Positions 1,344 through 23,853 of a stretch of DNA of 64,000 nt are shown in pieces. The notes beneath the pieces were generated by a model. It was given only the letters and a program-made list of their open reading frames with translations, was not told the origin of the DNA and searched no databases. The DNA is taken from positions 745 through 64,744 of the forward strand of contig DATBNJ010000182.1 of assembly GCA_036554385.1 (NCBI GenBank), written 5' to 3'. This stretch comes from Marinagarivorans sp. (GTDB lineage: Bacteria > Pseudomonadota > Gammaproteobacteria > Pseudomonadales > Cellvibrionaceae). Every line of letters begins with the position of its first letter. The first letter of the stretch is position 1. The position numbers and the translations under genes are program-made.

Positions 1344-2402
1344 CTAGGAATTCTCTGTGCGTGTGGCGCGTTTGGCTTTGGCGTGGCCGTAGGTTCTAGG
1401 TAGGGTGTAATAGTCAATAAACGGTGCGGCGAAGTTCATTAATAATACGGCGAAGGCGACGGCATCTGGGTAGTTACCCCAAACGCGGATAATGTAAACC
1501 AAAGCGCCAATCATAGCGCCGTAAATTAGGCGCCCTTTATTACTGGTGGCCGAAGATACCGGGTCGGTCACAATAAAAAACGCGCCCAGCATTGTCGCGC
1601 CCGAAAATAAATGCAAAAGCGGGGAACCACCACTGGAGGAACTGCCACTGTCGTAAAATGCCGCGGAAAGCAGCGCCAATGTCGCCAACATAGCAATGGG
1701 CGCGTGCCATGTAAAAACGCGGCGAATTAATAAAAAGATGCCGCCGACTAAAAAGGCAACATTGACCCATTCGTAACCAGCGCCGGCAAATACGCCCTGT
1801 GTGAAAATCGCGTTGTTATTGTGAATATCTTCGGCCGTTAGCCCGCGGCTTTGCTTAAAGACATCAAGCGGGGTTGCACCAGTAAGTGCATCTAGCGGCG
1901 TCGAGCCGATAATTAACTGGGCCAAAGCCGAAACATCAAAGAGTGCGCCGTTGGTGGCGATGTTTTCTGGGGCGAGCCATAACGTCATGTACTGGGGAAA
2001 CGAAATAAGCAATACCACATAACCGACCATAGCGGGGTTGAACGGGTTATACCCCAAGCCGCCGTAAAGCTGTTTGGCGACCACGATACTGGCGATTATG
2101 CCGACCGCAATCAGCCACCAACTACTTGCTGGCGGGATGGCAATCGCGAGCAGTACCGCGGTGACCACAGCGCTTAAATCTTTAAGGTAAAAGCCGATCG
2201 GACGCTTTCGCAGTTTTAAGATAAGAGCTTCAAAACCCAAGGCAAACACACAGGCGATGACGATGTTGGATAAGGTGCCCAAGCCAAAAAAGTAGGTCAG
2301 CACGGCGATGCCGGGCAGTGTTGCAATGAGCACGTCACGCATAACGCGTTGCGTGGTGTTGGGGTTATGGGTATGAGGGGACGAAGCGCGCAGAAAAGCC
2401 AT
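1344..2402 (-). CDS. rnfD: Rnf/Rsx subunit D
   Basis: Starts with SSPH, polytopic membrane protein, KQLYGGLGYNPFNPAM, FMN Thr motif DALTGATPLD, FIVTDPVS. Confidence 0.96.
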   Translation of the reverse strand: MAFLRASSPHTHNPNTTQRVMRDVLIATLPGIAVLTYFFGLGTLSNIVIACVFALGFEALILKLRKRPIGFYLKDLSAVVTAVLLAIAIPPASSWWLIAVGIIASIVVAKQLYGGLGYNPFNPAMVGYVVLLISFPQYMTLWLAPENIATNGALFDVSALAQLIIGSTPLDALTGATPLDVFKQSRGLTAEDIHNNNAIFTQGVFAGAGYEWVNVAFLVGGIFLLIRRVFTWHAPIAMLATLALLSAAFYDSGSSSSGGSPLLHLFSGATMLGAFFIVTDPVSSATSNKGRLIYGAMIGALVYIIRVWGNYPDAVAFAVLLMNFAAPFIDYYTLPRTYGHAKAKRATRTENS

Positions 2403-2430
2403 TCAAAAAGCCACAGTAATTAATCGGGTA

Positions 2431-2460
2431 AAAACAAAAGTGGGGGCTTTAGCCCCCACT
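2431..2460 (-). terminator. Intrinsic terminator downstream of mscS, inside the rnf operon
   Basis: Inverted repeat AGTGGGGGCT (2439-2448) / AGCCCCCACT (2451-2460) followed on the minus strand by TTTGTTTTT. Confidence 0.75.
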
Positions 2461-2464
2461 GAGC

Positions 2465-3295
2465 CTACTTTTCAACTTGATGCATATACACATCTTGTTG
2501 TGGGTAAGGAATGGTAATGCCGTTGGCATCAAAGGTGTTTTTAATTTCTTCGAGCAAGTACCAGCGAGTTGGCCAGTAGTCGCCAGACGCCACCCACGGC
2601 CGAACAACGAAGTTTACGCTGCTATCGCCGAGCTCGTTGACAGCAACCACGGGAGCTGGGTCTTGCATGATGCGCTCGTCGGCATCGAGTACCTGCATGA
2701 TGAGGTCGCGCGCTTTTTTCATGTCGTCGTCGTAGCTAATGCCGATGGTTAAGTCGATGCGTCGCGTGGCGCGGGCAGAGTAGTTAGTTATGGTTCCGCC
2801 GTAAATTTGTGCATTCGGCACGATGATTTCTTTGTTGTCACCCGAGCGGAAAACCGTATTAAACACTTCAATTTTTTCGACAATGCCCGCGATTCCCCCA
2901 GCTTCAATAAAATCACCGGTTTTGAAGGGTTTGAAAAGAATCAACATTACGCCGGCAGCGAAGTTGGATAGCGAATCTTTTAGCGCAAGGCCTACGGCCA
3001 AACCCGCAGCACCTAATAGCGCCAGTAATGAGGTGGTGTTCACTCCCAGTTGCTCAACGGCGATCAAAATAATGACAAAGCTGAACACGGTGCCGAGAAT
3101 TGCTGTTAAGAAGCCGCGTAAAACCGGATCCATTTTGCGCAATTCCATGCCCTTGTCGATCAGTCTAACAATGTGGGAGGCAACCCACTTACCGATAAAG
3201 TAAATGGCGATGGCCACTAGCACGTTGATCAAAAACGGAACAACGCTGTCCATCCAAGCCCCATCGGCAAAAAACTCATTTATTTGCTCTAACAT
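2465..3295 (-). CDS. mscS: Small-conductance mechanosensitive channel MscS family
   Basis: Three N-terminal TM helices, TM3 LGAAGLAVGLALKDSLSNFAAG, PFKTGDFI, IIVPN, TRRIDLTIGISY, GITIPYPQQDVYM. Confidence 0.93.
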   Translation of the reverse strand: MLEQINEFFADGAWMDSVVPFLINVLVAIAIYFIGKWVASHIVRLIDKGMELRKMDPVLRGFLTAILGTVFSFVIILIAVEQLGVNTTSLLALLGAAGLAVGLALKDSLSNFAAGVMLILFKPFKTGDFIEAGGIAGIVEKIEVFNTVFRSGDNKEIIVPNAQIYGGTITNYSARATRRIDLTIGISYDDDMKKARDLIMQVLDADERIMQDPAPVVAVNELGDSSVNFVVRPWVASGDYWPTRWYLLEEIKNTFDANGITIPYPQQDVYMHQVEK

Positions 3296-3433
3296 AGGTA
3301 ACTCCTAATTGGTTTTAGCGCCCGTAATAGACGCACGATAGTTGTTTTCACCCTGTGGTCATGCAACGTATGTCCCTATCGCCTTAAAATTGCTCGGCTT
3401 TTTCAACGGGTGGTTTCCCAATGTTGTTAGGCT

Positions 3434-5698
3434 TTACGTTGTGCTTTCTTGCGTTCCCTCATTCATTGCATCCTGCAGTTTTTGCTCCAATTTCTCTACG
3501 CCCGCGGCAAACGCCGCTATGTTGTCGTCGTTGTCTTGCTCGGCCTTATGTAAGCGCGACTTGGCTTTAGCGAGCCGTTTCTCTAGTGAAGCGATATTGG
3601 CCGCGCGCTTCTCCTCTAGCGACATCGCCGCGGCCGCTTTAGCTTTTGCTTGCGCCTTGGCGATGGCGGCTGCGGCGGCATCTGTAGTGGCCGGTTCCAC
3701 TGCAAGCTCTGCTGGCAGCGCTTTGGTGGCCTCTAGCGCGTGCCGCGCCTCATCAACCTTAATTTCGAGTTTTTCTACGCCCTGTTTAAGGGCGTTAATT
3801 GTGGGTTTGCCCGCTTCAATGGCTTCGGCTAATTTCTCGCGCGCGGTTGCCAAGCGCTTGCTGATTGATGCGAGGTTCTTTTCCGCTATGGCGACAGGGT
3901 CGTCGCTTTTGGCTGTAGCAGCGGACGCGTTTTGGGCGCCACTATCTTGGGACGCGCTGCTGTTTTGCGATGCCTGCGTTTGCTTTAAAGCGGCCAGTTT
4001 AGCGCGCGCATCTTGCAGTTTTATTTGTGTTTGTTTTAACTGCGAGGTGAGCTTCTCGACCGGTTGTTGATTCTCGCTCGCCTCAGCAATTTGGCTGTTT
4101 AGTCGCTCCATTCGCGCATTGAGGCTTGCCAATGTTCTTTCAATACGCGCCTTATCCTGTTCGGGATTATTTTGCGCTTTGGCAGCGACCGTTGCCTTTG
4201 TTGCCATGGTTTCTTCGGGCGTTGCCCCAGCGCTTGCATTGGCCTGTTTTGCTTTGTTCTGCTCGGCGGCGAGTTTGCGCGCTTGACGTTTCGCCTCTTT
4301 GGCGGCCTCTTCTTTGGCGATACGTGCTTGGCGGCGCTCAAAGCGCTCGCGCGCGCGATCGGACTTCAGCTTGTCCTCCTGCGCTTGGCGAATCGTCCCT
4401 TTTGCCGATCGGTAATACTGCACCAGTGGAATGGCGCTCGGGCAGACATAAGAGCAGGCGCCGCACTCGATGCAATCAAATAAATTGTGATTTTGCAGTT
4501 TTTCGTGCTCGTCAGCCCGTGCATACCAATAAAGTTGCTGCGGCAGTAATCCAGCCGGGCAAGCTTCGGCGCAGTGTCCACAGCGAATACAGGCTTGTTG
4601 TGCTGGGGCCTCGGGCATTTCAGTGTGGCTCGGTGCCAGAATGCAGTTTGTGGTTTTCACCACCGGCACGCTCGTTTGCTCAAGGGCAAAGCCCATCATC
4701 GGGCCGCCAACGATCAAACGCGCGCTAGACGCTGGATTAAACCCGTTCTCTTCGAGAACGCGGTCCATGGGGGTGCCGATGCGTACACGCATATTGCGCT
4801 GCGTTTTTAGCGACTCGCCAACCACGGTTGTAATGCGCTCGATGAGCGGTTCGCCATAGCGCACCGCGCGCCAAGCTGCGACCGCGGTGCCAACATTTTG
4901 CACCACAATACCGAGGCTTGCGGGGATTTGCCCAGAGGTAACCTCTTTGCCCGTCAAAATGTAAATGAGCTGCTTTTCGCCACCGGAGGGGTACTTGGTG
5001 GGAAAGCTCACGACCTCGATATCGCTTCCCTTGGCGGCACCTTCCAGCGCAGCGATGGCTTTGGGTTTGTTGTCTTCTACGCCGATTAGTACCTGCGCGG
5101 GATTGCCGAGGGTATGAGCCAACAGCTGAGCGCCGAGAATAACTTCATCGGCGTGCGCTTGCATGAGCGCATCGTCGGCGGTGATATACGGCTCGCATTC
5201 GGTACCATTTAAGATCAGCGTATTAATGACCGTATTGCTGCGCGGGTTTAATTTAACGGCCGTTGGAAAGCCCGCGCCGCCCAGTCCGACCAATCCGGCC
5301 GAACGAATTTTTTCAATAAGCGTTGCGTGCTCCAGCTCGAAAGGATTGGGCGCTTCGCTCAGCGCTAAAGCGGTGTCTAAACCGTCTGCTTTTATCACGA
5401 TACAAGGCGCGCTCAGGCCTGAGGGGTGCGCAATAAAACGGTCTTCGATGGCGGTCACCACGCCCGAAGTCGGGGCGTGTAAGGCAGCGCTAAATACTCC
5501 TTCGGTATCGGCAAGCCGTTGGTATTTTTTAACCGCATCGCCGACCTCAACTACCGGTGTAGAGGGAGCGCCAATATGCTGCGCGAGCGGCAGTACGTAT
5601 TCATCAACCAGCGCGGCGGTGGCGATGGGGTGTTGCAGCGACTGCGCTTTGTTTTCCGGCGGGTGCACGCCGCCGGGGACTTCCCAAATTTTCCTCAT
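3434..5698 (-). CDS. rnfC: Rnf/Rsx subunit C with a long C-terminal coiled-coil extension
   Basis: [42 protein letters not shown] and two CxxCxxCxxxCP ferredoxin motifs, then about 310 aa of Ala/Lys/Glu/Gln-rich tail. Confidence 0.96.
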
Positions 5699-16853: not shown

Positions 16854-17174
16854 CTACAGCGGGTTGCAGCCCTGTGCTGATAAGGCAATATTGGCGCTGG
16901 ATTTTGCGGTGTCGAAGTATTTGGCGCCGCTGCCGCCGGTGTATGGAATACCAATCGAAGCTGACAGCTCTTTAGCCGCGTCGATCGACATCTTGTCTCG
17001 GTCATAGGCGTTAAAGGTGTTGTAGATTTGGTCGCAGCTAAAGGCACCAAACCCCTGTCTGGAGGCGTCCACCATGGCGCCGGAGGTTTCGCAGCCGCTT
17101 AGCGTTGCACTCGTGATGCCAAAAGCAAGTGCCAAGGTGCCTCGGCGGAGGGTTGTTGTTAGAGTGTTAGACAT
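16854..17174 (-). CDS. Small hypothetical lipoprotein
   Basis: Lipobox LSG-C, two further Cys residues, and GAGGA upstream of the start. Confidence 0.75.
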   Translation of the reverse strand: MSNTLTTTLRRGTLALAFGITSATLSGCETSGAMVDASRQGFGAFSCDQIYNTFNAYDRDKMSIDAAKELSASIGIPYTGGSGAKYFDTAKSSANIALSAQGCNPL

Positions 17175-17283
17175 AGTGTTTTCCTCAATGGTCTGTTACA
17201 TCCAAATGGTCATTTACGGTGTTAGCTACCGGCAATGTTATCGGTTATTTTTAGGCTTAGGGACTAGTTGCTATCGTTAACTA

Positions 17284-17461
17284 CCATCCATAGCGTTTTG
17301 CGGCGTCGTTTTTTGTGGGTATCTGACCGCTAAGGACGGAGGAAATGCAAACCGATGGCCTAAGCGAGCTTTGCCCCTACGCCGCGTGACCTGAGCCTTC
17401 GGGCGGCAGGCAGTGAGCATTACATAAAATTCCGCCTTTGGCATCTCGCAAGCGGTTTTTT
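17284..17461 (+). ncRNA. Candidate structured small RNA or leader (unassigned)
   Basis: 7-bp long-range stem 17300-17306/17379-17385, cUUCGg hairpin 17390-17410, weak hairpin plus T6 at 17432-17461, and TGCTATCGT extended -10 at 17269-17277. No known family recognised. Confidence 0.3.
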
Positions 17462-17537
17462 GCCGTAAATCAACCCCCTGCAGGGGCCGCATTTAACGGT
17501 ATAATCGCGGCCCTTTTGGCCAAAGTATTAGCTTCGT

Positions 17538-19067
17538 ATGTTTTTTGTTCGTGAACGTTTGCACTTTTTCCGGCCTCTTACCACAAAGTACCGTCAGCAG
17601 GTGCTGGAGTGCCTGTGCCTGTTACATGAGCGCTTGTACGGTGCCACCGCCGAATACGGCCAGTCGCTGGGGCGCGATCAGGTGCTGGATATTTTCGAAG
17701 AGGCGCTAGCGCGGGCGCCGGTTTTGGAGGCGCTCGCCGGCGATGAGCTGCGCCTAGAGGGCGGGGAGCTGGAGTTTACCGAGCAGCGCTTTAAAAATCA
17801 CCGCGAACATGCCGGCTGGATTCTCAAATTGCTATTAGAATACGGTTGGCTCGAGCGCCAAGTGGATGGGGCGACCTTGCAATCGAGCTACCCGTTGTCG
17901 CGAGCGGGGCGGTTATTTATCGGTCCAATGGTGGAAATGGGCTCGCGCAGAGTGCGCACTCGCCACCGCAATACGCGCAATACCTTGAACGCGCTGGAGG
18001 CCTTCGCCAGCCGCGGTGAGATACATGACCTGCTCGATGCCTTTGAATATTCAGAGCGCATTATTACCGATTTCACGGATATTATTAGCGAGCTCGAAGA
18101 ACGCAAACGCGAACTGGTGCAAGAGGTCGAGTCTCAGCGCATTGTGCAGCAGGCGACCGAGCAATTTTTTGAATTTATGGAAAAGCGGTTTCAGCCCGAT
18201 GTATCTGTGCGCTTATCGGCCGATAGCGTAGAAAAGCATCGAGATCGCGTTTTTAAGGCTATTTCGCGCATTCGCCGCAAAGATAAAGCCTTTAAGCAAA
18301 TTGCCGAGCGGCGTTTGCGCGAACTGGCACCAGAGCTGATTCACGACGAGCGCCAGTCGGCTTTGTGGTACCTGCTCGATACCATCGATCAGCGCATGCG
18401 CCGCGCCGCGGATACCATGCTCCCCGCGCTGCGCTCGGCCTTGGCCGGTTTTACCAAACGGGCCGATATTATTATTCGCCAGCTCAGTTATTTAGCCAAT
18501 AGCACCCGGGACCCCTGGTTAGAGGCGTGCGACAACCTTCGCAAGCTGACGCCGCAGGAGGCCGAGCAGCGCCTTAGCCAACTGGGCGACTATTTGTCGG
18601 GTGTCAATGTGCGCTTAGTCGATCCAGCTCAAGTGCGGCTGACGACGCGCAAAAGTGCCGCGCCCGTTATGAGCGCGCTTGATGAGGAGCGCCCGCTAGA
18701 CCCAGCAGCGCAAAAAGAGCTGCTCATTCAGCAAATGTTAGATCAAGCATTTGTGATTAACGATAATCGCCAGCAGCAATATTTGCGCACCCATATTGAA
18801 GCGGCGTTGCGCAATGACCGGGCGATATCGACCTGTGACCTTCCGATCGAGAATGCCAGCGATTTACTGGCGGTTGCCCACGCTATTGAATCAGCCGCCC
18901 GACAGGCTCCCGAAGCCGATTACCGCTTTAGTGTTAAATATTTAAATCGGCAGTACCAAAATACCTTTTTTAGTTCGGCTGACGATTTTGAATTGTCGTT
19001 GAGCTACCACGCGCAACAAGGTGGTACGAGCCCTCAACCATTACCGGAGCAAGCTGATGATCAGTGA
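17538..19067 (+). CDS. jetA: Wadjet JetA / MksF-like kleisin subunit
   Basis: 509 aa, N-terminal FFRPLTxKYR, winged-helix-like LxxYGWL, long helical middle; first gene of a kleisin-KITE-SMC operon. Confidence 0.8.
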   Translation: MFFVRERLHFFRPLTTKYRQQVLECLCLLHERLYGATAEYGQSLGRDQVLDIFEEALARAPVLEALAGDELRLEGGELEFTEQRFKNHREHAGWILKLLLEYGWLERQVDGATLQSSYPLSRAGRLFIGPMVEMGSRRVRTRHRNTRNTLNALEAFASRGEIHDLLDAFEYSERIITDFTDIISELEERKRELVQEVESQRIVQQATEQFFEFMEKRFQPDVSVRLSADSVEKHRDRVFKAISRIRRKDKAFKQIAERRLRELAPELIHDERQSALWYLLDTIDQRMRRAADTMLPALRSALAGFTKRADIIIRQLSYLANSTRDPWLEACDNLRKLTPQEAEQRLSQLGDYLSGVNVRLVDPAQVRLTTRKSAAPVMSALDEERPLDPAAQKELLIQQMLDQAFVINDNRQQQYLRTHIEAALRNDRAISTCDLPIENASDLLAVAHAIESAARQAPEADYRFSVKYLNRQYQNTFFSSADDFELSLSYHAQQGGTSPQPLPEQADDQ

Positions 19068-19722
19068 TTATTTGCGCGGCCCGCTGAGCGAAAAAAATGT
19101 TTCCAACGAGGAATTTTCCGAGTTGCTTATTCGCTTATTGGATTACGGCGTATTATGCCGCGACGAAAATAATATCGAGCAACGACTGTACGATCGCTAC
19201 CTTCGCATCGAGCCGATGGTCGTCGACTTTATTAGCGTGTTGGGCATGCGCATTGAGCACAATGCCCGCTTTGGTTTTATTCGCGTGTATCCGCCCGGAG
19301 CGCAGGTGCCGAGCCTGCCCGATGACGAACATGCGCCGTTTAATAGCGGCTTTCGCCAGCGGCTCAATCAGTTTGAAGCCGCTTTGGCGATTATTCTACG
19401 TGTTGAATATGGTAAGCAGCTGCGTGAAGGCAAGGTCGACGAGCAAGGCGCTGTGCTGGCCAATATGGAGGCGATATCTATCGCTTTTCACAATCTGTTG
19501 AAAAAGAGCTTGCCGGAAAATATTACCGAGCGCCGCAACCTATTTCGCAAACTTCGCCAGCTTCGGGTGCTGCATTACCAAAGTGAAGAAGACTTAGACA
19601 GCCTAGAAGGTTGGGTCAAAATTCGGCCGTTGATTATGGGCTTTGTTGGCGATGCAGCGTTGGATGCCCTAGAGGCCCGAACTAATGAAGAGCTTGTTCA
19701 AGAAACGGTATTCGATAATTGA
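19057..19722 (+). CDS. jetB: Wadjet JetB / MksE-like KITE subunit (DUF4194-like)
   Basis: About 221 aa from ATG 19057, overlapping the jetA stop by 11 nt; LLDYGVL...YDRY and IILRVEYxxxLREG, typical of DUF4194-type proteins. Confidence 0.8.
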   Translation: MISDYLRGPLSEKNVSNEEFSELLIRLLDYGVLCRDENNIEQRLYDRYLRIEPMVVDFISVLGMRIEHNARFGFIRVYPPGAQVPSLPDDEHAPFNSGFRQRLNQFEAALAIILRVEYGKQLREGKVDEQGAVLANMEAISIAFHNLLKKSLPENITERRNLFRKLRQLRVLHYQSEEDLDSLEGWVKIRPLIMGFVGDAALDALEARTNEELVQETVFDN

Positions 19723-19768
19723 TCGATAACTGCAATGATTGTCGTGCCTGTAAAATTAAGAGTGTTGT

Positions 19769-22700
19769 ATGTTTATAAAAAAAGCCGTTTTTGTTAACTG
19801 GGGTAATATTCCAAAATTGGAGTTTGACTTTGGCCCCGTCAACCTCTTTTCGGGGGGGAATGGCTCCGGTAAAACAACGGCCGCCGATGCGCTGCAAGCT
19901 TTGATGACCGCTGCGCACGATAATTTGTTTGCCTTTAACCCAGGGCAAGACGAAACCACTCAAAAAGGCCGCGGCGGCAAACAGGTTCGCACGCTGGCTT
20001 CCTATTTGCTGGGTTGTGACGACGGCAGTTATGCGCGTCCCTATGCGACTGATGGTTATGTGGCGGCGGTTTTTCACCCCACCGAAGGTGAAGTCGCAGA
20101 GCCTTTCTCAGCGATTATGGCGATGCGTGGTCATATCGAAACCGGCGGTAGCCAAAAACAAGCGCGCCTAGATAATTTGTTTTTTATGATTATCCCCGGT
20201 GAGTCGGTATCGCTTGATTGTTTTGTGCGCGAATTTAACGACGGCAAGCATATCAAACCGACCACAGAAGTGGCGGCCTACTTAAAGCAACGTTTCTCCA
20301 GTAGCACGGTCGAAGTTTACGATAAAAAAGGCGCCTATTTGCGCCGCCTTTACGGCGCGCTTCGCGGCCGCACAGATGCAGTGCCCGACCGAGAGGCTAA
20401 ACACGCGGCCCGCACCCTTGCCAATTTTATGGCCTATAAGCCCGTAAAAAGTATTCACGAATTTGTTGCCGGGGAAATACTAGAGGCCAAAGACCTTGGC
20501 GATGCCATTCGCAATGTCTCCGATTTGATGAAAACTATACATCAAATGGAATCGTCTGCGGCTACGGTTAAAAGTGCCATTGGGCTATTGGGCAGCGCCG
20601 CCGACTGCAGTCGGCAGTATGTGGATACTTGGGTGGATTTGGCGCTGGCAAGGTATACCGAGGCGACGCGCCAAGTGTTAGCGGCGCAAAATAGTTATCT
20701 GACGTTACGTCGCGAAAAGAAACAAACGGACACGGCGTTATCACAAGCACAAGAGCGCAGCGAGTTGGCGCGTGAGCGCAAGCGGCAATTGCATAAGACC
20801 ATTGTACAGCTCGAGGCTAAACGCCAGGGTATTGATGCACTGCGAGACAAAGACGCCCTGCAGCAGGCGGCCGATAAAGCGCAGAAACACATGGCGCAGT
20901 TGGTTGAGCCTTTTTTAAATGAAGTGGCCAATGCACAAAATAACGCCGCTTGCGCAGAGTTTTTATTGCAGGCAGGCCAGCAAAGTGGCTTGGGTGTCGA
21001 ACTTAAATTTTTAACTGACCCTGCGTTTCAAAAGTTATCCCGCGCTGTGGTCAGTGCCGGCGAGCTGCGCACACTCGATGCGCGGAAGGTCTTTAATAGC
21101 GATTGGTTGGGCGCGGCGCCACTCGAGCAATTAATGGATAAGGCGCTGGTTTGGCAGGGCGAGCAAAATAACTGGCTGGCCGATGTTATAGCAACGGACT
21201 CAGGCCCAACTGGCGATGCGGCAAGACGCGATGCAGTGGCATCTTTAGTGGCCGAGCGCAAGCAAGCTTATGAGCGTTTAAAAGCCGAGTGTGTCACCTT
21301 AGCCAACGACGTACAGTTATTGATGTCTAGCCAAGTAAACTACCCGCCAGCGGTAGTTGCTGCGATAAAGGCCATTGAAGAGGCGTGCCCACATGCGCAC
21401 CCCAAGGTGTTGTGTGACTATGTAGACGTACTTGAGCCCGAATGGCAAATGGCGATTGAAGGTTATTTGGGTGGCGCGCGATTTAGCCTGCTTGTCGACC
21501 CACAATACGAGGCGCAAGCGATTGCCGCAGTGCGCAATATGCGCGGCCATAAGCGCAATAGTGCGCGCGTCATTCAAGGTGAAAAAGCCGAGCGTGATGC
21601 CGAGCGCTTTAATGTGGTGAAAGGCTCAATTCTCGAGGTCATGGCTTTTAGTCACAGCACTGCACAAGCGTACATCAAAGCATCATACGGCAATGTGGTG
21701 CGCGTAGATTCGGCGCAGACCTTAAAGCATACGGCGCGGGGTATTACGGCAGAAGGTTTAGGTTCTGGTAATTATAGTTTGTGGCGTTGTGATTTAAACG
21801 ATGCGGAGCTCGTTTTTGGGCAGGGTGCTCGTCAACGCGCTTTAATCGCCAAACAAGAAGAGTTACAGCGCAGCCAGAAGCGCTTGCGGGATGCGCAGGA
21901 GCAACTGGAACAGTTGCAGGCTATCGCGACCCAATTATCGACCATTAAACCTTGTCGCATTGCCGATTTACTGGAGCAGTTGCTGCAATTATCGCGTCAA
22001 CTCAACGAGGCCGAAGAATCGTTGGCCGCTATCGATAGCGGTGAGGGTAGTGACCTCGAGCAAGAATTGGCTAACGTGCAGCAGCAATATCAGCAGCAAG
22101 AGGATCAACAAAAACACTACGAGCAGGATATTGGTCGTTATCAAGCGCAGCTAGCAACCTTGGAAAAAAAGGTGACCTCGCTGTTAGATGAGCAAGATGG
22201 CGCTGAAAAACAGCGCGAAATACTCGAAGATGCCGTGCAGGACATCGCTAAAGTGCATCCGCGTTTTGATATTGAAAAAGCGTTGCGCGATGCTGATGTC
22301 AATGCAGAAAAAACTGCCGAAAGTTCGTTAGCTGAACTGCTAAAATCCTCACAGGAACAGCTGACGCGCTGCGAACGCGAATTATTTAACTTGGTTCAGC
22401 GCTACAACTTAGAGGCCGGTGTCGGAGATTCGCTATTGTACGATGCGGGTGTGTCGGAAATGCACAGCTTTGAGTTTTTTAAGCACTTAGTCCATTTGCA
22501 AGGTTCTATCGAGGCGCTGCATACACGATTTAAAAATAATATTTTAGTTGCAAAGCACAAAGAGCTGACCGCGCTTAAAGAGTCATTTAATACCGCTTTT
22601 GTCACCAATTTGTGTCACTCCATTTATCAGGCGATTAACGAAGGCGAGTCAGTGCTTAATGAGCTAAATAGCGAACTTGCGCACCATCGCTTCGGTGCCG

Positions 22701-23431
22701 ACCGTGAATGTTATTCCTTTGCTACGCAGTGGGTGCCTGAGTATAAAGAGTATTGGCAGTTTTTTAAGGTTGTGATTGCCAACCCGCAGCTGGGCGATGG
22801 CAAAACTTTGTTCGAAATTGAGCTCGACAAAAAGCATGCGCGCATTCGCGATGAACTGCTGCGCATGTTATTGGATGAGGACGAGCAAACGGCGCACCGT
22901 GAATTACAGCGGATTAGCGATTACCGAAATTACCGGCGTTACGAAATTTACAAAGAGCCGGCTAACAAGGCGCCTATTGCATTGAGCGAATACGGGACCG
23001 GCTCTGGTGGGCAGCTTGAAACACCGGCTTACATTATTCGCTCGGCGGCGGTGACATCGGCATTTCGCTTTAATGAAGGCAAGGCGCATTTGCGCATGGT
23101 TATGGTGGACGAAGCTTTTTCAAAAATGGATGAGGGGCGCTCGCGAGAAGTCATCAACTATTTAACGGACGCGCTCGGTTTACAGCTGATTTTTATTATG
23201 CCAACGAGCAAGTCGGGCCCGTTTTTAGACTTAATCAGTAATCAGTTTGTGTTTGCTAAGTGTCCGACACTGCAACCGGTCGGCGAGCTAAAAACGCGGG
23301 TATTTGTCGACCGCAAAGCCTGCAATACCGATAAAATCAAAAACCTATGGGCTAAACACCGTAAGGTGATTCGGCATCAGGCTATGTTAGATTTTATGGA
23401 AGAGTTCGCACCAGCCGCTGAGCAAGAGTAG
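19769..23431 (+). CDS. jetC: Wadjet JetC / MksB-like SMC ATPase
   Basis: 1220 aa: Walker A GGNGSGKTT, long coiled coils, hinge-like LCDYVDV..WQMAIEGYLGxxRF, signature GSGGQ and Walker B/D-loop VMVDEAFSKMD. Confidence 0.88.
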   Translation: MFIKKAVFVNWGNIPKLEFDFGPVNLFSGGNGSGKTTAADALQALMTAAHDNLFAFNPGQDETTQKGRGGKQVRTLASYLLGCDDGSYARPYATDGYVAAVFHPTEGEVAEPFSAIMAMRGHIETGGSQKQARLDNLFFMIIPGESVSLDCFVREFNDGKHIKPTTEVAAYLKQRFSSSTVEVYDKKGAYLRRLYGALRGRTDAVPDREAKHAARTLANFMAYKPVKSIHEFVAGEILEAKDLGDAIRNVSDLMKTIHQMESSAATVKSAIGLLGSAADCSRQYVDTWVDLALARYTEATRQVLAAQNSYLTLRREKKQTDTALSQAQERSELARERKRQLHKTIVQLEAKRQGIDALRDKDALQQAADKAQKHMAQLVEPFLNEVANAQNNAACAEFLLQAGQQSGLGVELKFLTDPAFQKLSRAVVSAGELRTLDARKVFNSDWLGAAPLEQLMDKALVWQGEQNNWLADVIATDSGPTGDAARRDAVASLVAERKQAYERLKAECVTLANDVQLLMSSQVNYPPAVVAAIKAIEEACPHAHPKVLCDYVDVLEPEWQMAIEGYLGGARFSLLVDPQYEAQAIAAVRNMRGHKRNSARVIQGEKAERDAERFNVVKGSILEVMAFSHSTAQAYIKASYGNVVRVDSAQTLKHTARGITAEGLGSGNYSLWRCDLNDAELVFGQGARQRALIAKQEELQRSQKRLRDAQEQLEQLQAIATQLSTIKPCRIADLLEQLLQLSRQLNEAEESLAAIDSGEGSDLEQELANVQQQYQQQEDQQKHYEQDIGRYQAQLATLEKKVTSLLDEQDGAEKQREILEDAVQDIAKVHPRFDIEKALRDADVNAEKTAESSLAELLKSSQEQLTRCERELFNLVQRYNLEAGVGDSLLYDAGVSEMHSFEFFKHLVHLQGSIEALHTRFKNNILVAKHKELTALKESFNTAFVTNLCHSIYQAINEGESVLNELNSELAHHRFGADRECYSFATQWVPEYKEYWQFFKVVIANPQLGDGKTLFEIELDKKHARIRDELLRMLLDEDEQTAHRELQRISDYRNYRRYEIYKEPANKAPIALSEYGTGSGGQLETPAYIIRSAAVTSAFRFNEGKAHLRMVMVDEAFSKMDEGRSREVINYLTDALGLQLIFIMPTSKSGPFLDLISNQFVFAKCPTLQPVGELKTRVFVDRKACNTDKIKNLWAKHRKVIRHQAMLDFMEEFAPAAEQE

Positions 23432-23445
23432 GGATGCTCGCCGAT

Positions 23446-23853
23446 TTACTGGTTTAGCCAGCTTTCTAAAATGAGCCGTGCGGCGATGGCATCAATAGGG
23501 TTTTTGCCGTAATCACCTTTGTGGCCGCGCTGCGCAGCTTCGGCCTTTGCTTCTCGCGTCGATAAACGCTCGTCCATTAAGTGAACGGGAATGCTGAAGC
23601 GCCCGTGAATGCGGTTGGCGAATTTGCGCGCGCGGGTCGATAGCTCACTGTCAGTGCCGTCCATATTTAAAGGCAAGCCCACGACGGCAGCTTCGACGCG
23701 CCACTCGACAAGTAGCTTTTCGAGGTGTTCCCAGTTGGGGATGCCGTCACGAGCGGGGAGTGACGGCTGTTCGGAGGCGGTGCGCGTTATCTGTTGACCC
23801 ATGGCAACGCCAATGTTTTTTAGCCCGTAATCAAAGCCTACAATATAGCCCAC
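23446..23853 (-). CDS. ruvX: Holliday junction resolvase-like / pre-16S rRNA nuclease YqgF
   Basis: GFDYGLKNIGVA, VVGLPLNMDG, DERLST, IDAIAARLILESW. Confidence 0.95.
   Translation of the reverse strand: MGYIVGFDYGLKNIGVAMGQQITRTASEQPSLPARDGIPNWEHLEKLLVEWRVEAAVVGLPLNMDGTDSELSTRARKFANRIHGRFSIPVHLMDERLSTREAKAEAAQRGHKGDYGKNPIDAIAARLILESWLNQ

Follow-up and report, generated by a model that had tools for sequence, protein, structure and literature searches.

A type I Wadjet operon without jetD in Marinagarivorans sp.: a candidate auxiliary SMC complex from a subclade with recurrent loss of its nuclease gene

Wadjet is a plasmid-cutting machine of the structural maintenance of chromosomes (SMC) type that gauges the shape of DNA, and the locus described here bears on how machines of this kind change between defence and the upkeep of the chromosome. 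The DNA analyzed, referred to as the window, is a stretch of 64,000 nucleotides (nt) from Marinagarivorans sp. (Cellvibrionaceae; contig DATBNJ010000182.1, positions 745 to 64,744). It carries a three-gene Wadjet operon, jetABC, which is not accompanied by the nuclease gene jetD. The complex encoded by this operon is rather probably an auxiliary, nuclease-independent SMC complex, similar to MksBEF and acting beside Smc-ScpAB. A condensin-like activity of this kind is suggested by the gene content of the operon, the integrity of its motifs, the loss of the cognate JetD, the purifying selection on its genes and the coexistence with Smc-ScpAB.

The three genes are read from the forward strand. 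The first, jetA (17538-19067, +), encodes a kleisin of 509 amino acids (aa) of the DUF5716/PF18982 type, jetB (19057-19722, +) a MukE-like KITE protein of 221 aa counted from the ATG at 19057, and jetC (19769-23431, +) a MukB-like SMC ATPase of 1220 aa. The longest open reading frame (ORF) of jetB begins at a GTG at position 19021; the methionine of the ATG at 19057 is also the start of the aligned homologues. PADLOC models of type I match all three proteins, namely JetA1 PDLC00445 for JetA (E 3.8e-202), JetB1 PDLC00482 for JetB (E 2.5e-89) and JetC1 PDLC00515 for JetC (1672 bits, residues 1-1213, which is the full length). Pfam adds JetA/PF18982 for the kleisin (E 3.7e-17, 62.5 bits with a cut-off of 26.2), DUF4194 (PF13835) for JetB (E 1.5e-26, 93.6 bits) and both AAA_29 and SbcC_Walker_B for JetC. 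As read off the sequence, JetC contains a Walker A motif (GGNGSGKT, residue 29), a signature-like motif (GSGGQ) and a Walker B motif (MVMVDE, residue 1110), and the last 11 nt of jetA are shared with the start of jetB (19057-19067). A first-pass annotation of the window had described an intact, tightly packed kleisin-KITE-SMC operon with an 11-nt jetA/jetB overlap and with Walker A, signature and Walker B in place; the ORFs were recovered exactly at the positions it had assigned, and re-reading the sequence confirmed both the overlap and the motifs. The subunits that make up a type I Wadjet, a JetA kleisin, a JetB KITE protein and a JetC ATPase with its motifs, are thus all encoded, and by these features the locus represents an operon of that type, jetA-jetB-jetC, which is intact and looks expressed. 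The window locus lacks the Toprim nuclease gene jetD expected beside jetABC; intact and subject to selection, it has the make-up of an mksF-mksE-mksB operon with no mksG.

Between the stop codon of jetC and that of the convergent gene ruvX lie only 14 nt (23432-23445), a gap that cannot fit a fourth gene. A whole-genome search with a profile of the cognate JetD finds nothing there either, in agreement with the earlier claim that the locus leaves no room for jetD. This cognate JetD was recognized through the relatives of the window operon. A homologue scan with a JetA alignment, taking one genome per species, yielded 80 loci with 51-65% identity, spread over Cellvibrionaceae, Microbulbifer, Halieaceae, Alcanivorax, Halopseudomonas, Oleispira, Ketobacter and others. 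These systems are marked by a JetA of the DUF5716 type, a JetC about 1210 aa long and a JetD of the PDLC00527 type, and by sequence the window JetABC is placed in this distinct chromosomal type I Wadjet subclade, which is widespread in marine Pseudomonadales. In many relatives a co-directional ORF of 371-432 aa follows directly after jetC, and 23 of these ORFs form one family. Each of the 20 aligned members matches both PADLOC JetD1 PDLC00527 (best E 4e-145) and Pfam JetD_C, and the consensus motifs of the alignment are VENQD and WGDLD. On the strength of these matches the family is assigned as the cognate JetD of the subclade. No JetD of the PDLC00527 type was found with profile A2 in the whole assembly of the window genome (G000), nor in five other genomes of the genus.

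The presence of JetD could be scored at 75 loci, at 29 of which the cognate gene follows jetC; it is absent from the remaining 46, and every one of these JetD-less loci encodes a full-length JetC (1203-1295 aa). The two states are interleaved on the JetC tree down to the level of species, as in Microbulbifer, Halopseudomonas and Arenicella, and the tree requires at least 13-17 changes of JetD state. Since the states alternate between close species, loss of JetD is recurrent and does not reflect one ancient domestication. Intermediates were sought by whole-genome searches of 40 relatives. The cognate jetD of genome G018 contains an in-frame TAG (G018:C368:1219-2349), and in G020 a C-terminal JetD remnant of 39 aa abuts an intact jetC (G020:C3:11771-11887; L159:3715-4167); from their sequences, both look like intermediates in the decay of JetD. 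In G011 an intact jetD of the cognate type lies 507 kb from jetABC (G011:C1:2056201-2057316; L158:10085-11344), flanked by a TonB-dependent receptor gene and hipA. At eight of the JetD-less loci with a co-directional ORF after jetC, the downstream genes are ordinary and unrelated (an ion channel, a pseudouridine synthase, a GGDEF protein and others), and hence no replacement effector is found there. One locus of the scan, L095 (JBLHIH010000019.1), carries a jetABC of this gammaproteobacterial subclade in a metagenome-assembled genome (MAG) labelled Flavobacterium sp.; the tree places it as sister of the jetABC from a Candidatus Azotimanducaceae MAG, and it probably represents a binning error rather than a transfer to Bacteroidota.

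On the JetC tree the window falls into a seven-member clade of JetD-less Cellvibrionaceae (support 100), which spans about 55% JetC identity and in which all members have a full-length JetC. A JetD-less clade of this span with full-length JetC throughout indicates that JetD loss is old in the lineage and that the motor has been maintained since. The JetA proteins of the window and of the sister species G004 are 89% identical. Selection was gauged by comparing the nonsynonymous divergence (dN) between G000 and G004, for which the synonymous divergence (dS) is saturated (>2). The dN values of jetA, jetB and jetC are 0.070, 0.081 and 0.066, respectively, next to 0.055 for parC, 0.098 for ruvX and 0.109 for gshB, and the upstream neighbours have values of 0.18-0.47. 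Purifying selection on JetA and JetC is strong.

These data bear on whether the three genes could be a decaying remnant, functionless after the loss of JetD and on the way to becoming pseudogenes. The JetD pseudogenes and remnants of the relatives would fit such a fate, as would a jetA that is broken at about codon 253 in another genome of the genus, G002. This account is nevertheless highly improbable. The three window ORFs and the ATPase motifs are intact, dN is below that of the neighbouring housekeeping genes (at saturated dS), and the JetD-less clade retains a full-length JetC in each member over its whole span of identity; the low dN and the age of the clade together disfavour decay. The break in G002 may itself be a MAG artefact, and the jetC of this genome is intact on another contig. 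The jetA fragment of G002 (G002:C87; L149:1768-8805) abuts about 6 kb of AT-rich, ORF-poor DNA with 30-37% GC, in which an Rfam search for rRNA gave no match, and the intact jetC, 79% identical, is located at the end of its contig. The break may be due to an insertion or deletion, or to misassembly of the MAG.

The assembly of the window genome, in 353 contigs and 97.6% complete, also encodes Smc, ScpA and ScpB. The SMC profile gives matches of 569 and 524 bits on two contigs, and the canonical smc gene is split over contig ends (G000:C249:8914-11001, profile positions 462-1180; G000:C56:2304-3665, profile positions 1-454); this is a break in the assembly and not in the gene. For MukB (PF04310) the best match in the genome, on another contig, reaches 20 bits and stays under the cut-off. 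Of the two systems that the first-pass annotation had considered for this genome, smc-scpAB and mukBEF, it is therefore Smc-ScpAB that was found, together with no MukB. With Smc-ScpAB present, JetABC is a second complex of the SMC class, additional to the canonical condensin.

The course of events proposed for the window lineage is as follows. The normal place of the PDLC00527-type jetD in the subclade is directly after jetC. This gene has been lost repeatedly across the subclade, with JetABC being kept, and in the window lineage the loss preceded the divergence of the seven-member JetD-less Cellvibrionaceae clade. Deprived of its cognate nuclease, the complex would most likely perform ATP-driven loop extrusion on DNA as an auxiliary condensin beside Smc-ScpAB.

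The genome does encode one protein of the JetD family. The gene of this protein, P0001 (G000:C185:15973-17211 = L002:9974-11215; 413 aa), is the sole match to Pfam JetD_C in the genome and matches PADLOC JetD1 PDLC00528 (E 8e-52). Its AlphaFold (AF2) model, with a pLDDT of 86.6, is matched by Foldseek over the full length to Corynebacterium glutamicum MksG (8b7f, E 1.3e-9) and to the JetD of PA14 (7til, E 3.9e-7), and the next structural matches are Topo VI-A and Spo11. The N-terminal CAP-like domain and the C-terminal Toprim fold that mark JetD/MksG are both predicted by the model; membership in a jetABCD operon is not found. The description of the system as nuclease-less in the first-pass annotation therefore stands for the operon, which has no jetD, and for the cognate type, which is missing from the assembly, but not for the genome as a whole. 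The same annotation had regarded a cognate jetD elsewhere in the genome that restores plasmid restriction as telling against its proposal; this is matched in part, by a JetD-family gene of a non-cognate subtype.

P0001 is located behind parC in the order parC, a glutaredoxin-like gene (grx) and the jetD-like gene; it converges on spoU-pdxJ, and parE is about 6 kb away. In the complete genome of G004 its orthologue is 1.1 Mb away from jetABC. Each of the five further genomes of the genus has an orthologue just after parC (59-91% identity), and the order parC-grx-jetD is seen in all four genus genomes with full flanks. Metagenomic relatives carry a jetD-like gene in the same place after parC, in one case without grx. 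As grx is more widely distributed than the jetD-like gene, the latter was inserted behind grx. Between G000 and G004 the dN of P0001 is 0.072 (dN/dS about 0.03), compared with 0.17-0.24 for its non-topoisomerase neighbours, and the gene is constrained as strongly as JetABC and ParC.

The subtype of P0001 differs from that of the subclade. The protein does not match PDLC00527, the model of the cognate JetD, and scores 10 bits with the cognate-JetD profile A2, the two having only a short Toprim motif in common. Its family consists of 12 protein clusters (P0001-P0012, alignment A3), outside of which identity drops to 26-29%. The nearest operon-linked relatives belong to BrxR-associated jetABCD islands with a PF18982 JetA and a JetC of another PADLOC type. 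From these affinities, P0001 is classified as the JetD of a Wadjet-I lineage different from that of the window JetABC. The Toprim glutamate is invariant in the family; the motifs IEN and WGDxD of canonical JetD appear in P0001 as IED and WGNID. NxD replaces DxD in nine of the 12 clusters and in the four genus genomes checked. Three clusters have the state EN/DxD, two have EN/NxD, seven have ED/NxD and none has ED/DxD, and sister pairs within the family differ in state. Such a pattern resembles an exchange of Asp and Asn under constraint, which may be compensatory, rather than free decay.

P0001 brings up the alternative that the window JetABC is still a plasmid-sensing nuclease complex, whose nuclease is supplied in trans from the parC-parE region. 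In its favour, P0001 is a true JetD-family protein by PADLOC and predicted fold, it is present genus-wide after parC under a constraint equal to that on JetABC and ParC, and the cognate JetD is missing from every genome of the genus that has JetABC. The nearest operon-linked relatives of P0001 accompany a JetA of the PF18982 type, as found in the window, and the unlinked but intact cognate-type jetD of G011, 507 kb from its jetABC, offers a precedent. Even so, an arrangement in trans appears unlikely. The subtype of P0001 is not the cognate one of the window JetABC clade, and the first aspartate of the Toprim DxD is an asparagine in nine of the 12 clusters. In addition, P0001 forms one vertical lineage, 64-68% identical over the genus, and JetABC two lineages that are only 50% identical, so the two have not been inherited together. 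A related and fairly doubtful scenario is that a JetD of foreign lineage was captured at parC-parE, became fixed and had its Toprim domain remodelled from EN...DxD to ED...NxD, and that it now acts either as a trans effector of the JetD-less JetABC or, domesticated, in a chromosomal DNA-processing role of its own.

Considering the position of the locus, the gshB-tonB-algH-ruvX block is kept across the genus and the side beyond ruvX varies. The junction of jetABC with ruvX occurs in the window genome and its nearest sister G004 only; the corresponding place is taken by two T2SSE (pilT/pilU-like) genes in G001, G003 and G005 and by an unrelated gene in G002. The term housekeeping locus, used in the first-pass annotation, is overstated for jetABC. 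By the same restriction to G000 and G004, the adjacency to the YqgF nuclease RuvX is coincidental, as had been surmised. No close relatives of the window operon were found on plasmids, where the nearest matches have at most 30% identity, and the window jetABC is chromosomal.

Several observations weigh against an auxiliary condensin. The neighbours of jetABC differ from genus to genus and synteny is not conserved. In G001 and G003, jetABC is found at another locus, and JetC is only 50% identical to that of the window though ParC is 86% identical. The approximately unbiased test rejects one common origin for the genus's four JetC proteins (p-AU 6e-49), although its force is reduced because the group was chosen with the tree already in view. 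The genus therefore holds two JetABC lineages at different loci, and jetABC is neither strictly vertical nor part of a fixed core gene set. To this is added the JetD-family protein P0001 encoded elsewhere in the genome. The N-terminus of JetB in Escherichia coli bears an IFDR motif that contacts JetD (PMC10586767). In the subclade alignment the JetB N-termini of loci with and without JetD show no visible difference; a JetD-docking surface may persist on JetB, and as the two groups are alike the comparison cannot discriminate between the readings. In sequence, the subclade is also far from all of the solved structures of Wadjet and Muk. Searches of PDB sequences with JetC, P0001 and the profiles A1 (JetA) and A3 gave nothing useful, and with the cognate-JetD profile A2 the sole match, to the Toprim motif of MksG, scored 25 bits. 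Likewise, P. aeruginosa is not among the 120 best homologues of Halopseudomonas JetA (down to 58% identity), so that any kinship with the characterized JetD-less condensin is putative. The condensin-like role of the window complex is proposed from sequence and by analogy.

Some of these observations would suit a further possibility, that JetABC defends the cell independently of a nuclease. Small circular DNA would be sensed by loop extrusion and restricted by compaction, silencing or mis-segregation, in the way proposed for Smc5/6 on viral episomes. Patchy presence, variable context and at least one horizontal replacement within the genus are more defence-like than core-condensin-like, and the mixing of JetD-bearing and JetD-less members on the tree, down to species level, suggests a JetABC core of value in both states. 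The non-nucleolytic restriction described for Smc5/6 (PMC10586767) provides a model. Against this stands that no JetABC is documented with such an activity, that restriction of plasmids by Wadjet, as published, requires JetD (PMC10586767), and that no defence-island neighbours were identified among the scanned flanking genes. Nuclease-independent defence is considered quite unlikely, and the auxiliary, MksBEF-like SMC complex remains the preferred interpretation of the window operon.

The immediate surroundings of the operon are ordinary. A stretch of 363 nt upstream of jetA (17175-17537) contains no called gene and is presumed to hold the promoter and leader; it is followed by a divergent gene (16854-17174, -) for a small lipoprotein of 106 aa with the lipobox LSGC. 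The first-pass annotation had put here about 360 nt of non-coding DNA and a small lipoprotein gene, which agrees. In G004 the corresponding region 5' of jetA measures about 190 nt (L037:5868-6057). The lipoprotein ORF has no Pfam match and is 67% identical to its G004 counterpart (BLAST, 90 aa). On the other side lies ruvX (YqgF; 23446-23853, -; Pfam RuvX E 1.7e-40, TIGR00250), convergent with jetC and outside the system, and beyond it algH, tonB and gshB, identified by Pfam. Promoter and terminator scans around jetABC returned site counts at chance level, and there are no tRNA genes within the window. The genes scanned on the flanks are ordinary and no defence-island neighbours were identified among them; the upstream neighbours returned no match to Pfam, the genes further upstream being outside the scan. 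The lack of an integrase or transposase nearby, stated in the first-pass annotation, is therefore supported only for the part of the flanks that Pfam covered. An imperfect direct repeat of 20 nt, matching at 17 of 20 positions, brackets jetABC (17449-17468 and 23493-23512); its second copy is inside ruvX and the repeat is probably due to chance. Apart from this single weak 20-mer, no convincing flanking repeats were found around jetABC.

The window genome contains, in addition, a second and truncated Wadjet-I operon on a 4.2-kb contig (G000:C245:1-4191, L014), with a jetA of the DUF3375 type (2033-3535, -), a jetB (1299-2045, -) and the first 434 codons of a jetC that runs off the contig end. 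The contig has a GC content of 54%, the genome one of 51%. The 3' end of this jetC and any accompanying jetD are absent from the assembly, and a Walker-B family search of the genome for the remainder returned only the window JetC, an SbcC-like ORF and an ABC ATPase. A DUF3375-type Wadjet like this one is found in just one other genome of the genus.

JetD-less operons of the Wadjet group have already been published (PMC7617805; PMC10586767). Given these published cases and the recurrence of JetD loss within the subclade, the window operon is not exceptional. What is new is descriptive, namely the patchy, recurrent loss of the subclade's own JetD type, with intermediates, and a heterologous JetD-family gene that has become fixed, in a single genus, between the genes for topoisomerase IV. 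The subclade offers a natural series, in which close relatives have a JetD that is intact, pseudogenized, reduced to a remnant, unlinked or absent, and makes a good comparative system for the role of JetABC without JetD. The JetD-like gene of the parC-parE region is a secondary curiosity that can be tested directly.

Compared with the known systems, the window operon shares its three subunits and their order with type I Wadjet (JetABCD, also named MksBEFG or EptABCD), which has been studied in E. coli GF4-3, P. aeruginosa PA14, C. glutamicum and M. smegmatis. The JetD-bearing relatives within the subclade carry the fourth gene, whose consensus has the Toprim glutamate and DxD, whereas the window operon has no jetD and its genome none of the cognate type. 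P0001 resembles JetD and MksG (7til, 8b7f) in its predicted fold over the full length, its match to PADLOC JetD1 and its invariant Toprim glutamate, and differs from them in having no linkage to jetABC, in its fixed position in a single genus, with parC on one side and parE on the other, and in the mostly NxD motif that is coupled to the change from EN to ED. MukBEF of Enterobacteria is likewise a nuclease-less kleisin-KITE-SMC member of the Wadjet/Mks group (PMC7617805), and several members of the Wadjet group have no MksG/JetD (PMC7617805). In contrast to the situation with MukBEF, the window genome shows no MukB-domain match above the cut-off, and Smc-ScpAB is retained rather than replaced. 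A published parallel is MksBEF of P. aeruginosa PAO1, a JetD-less system that coexists with Smc-ScpAB (PMC10586767). Like it, the window jetABC is a chromosomal three-gene operon without a nuclease gene, accompanied by Smc-ScpAB and under purifying selection; unlike it, the window operon belongs to a subclade in which the JetD states alternate between close species.

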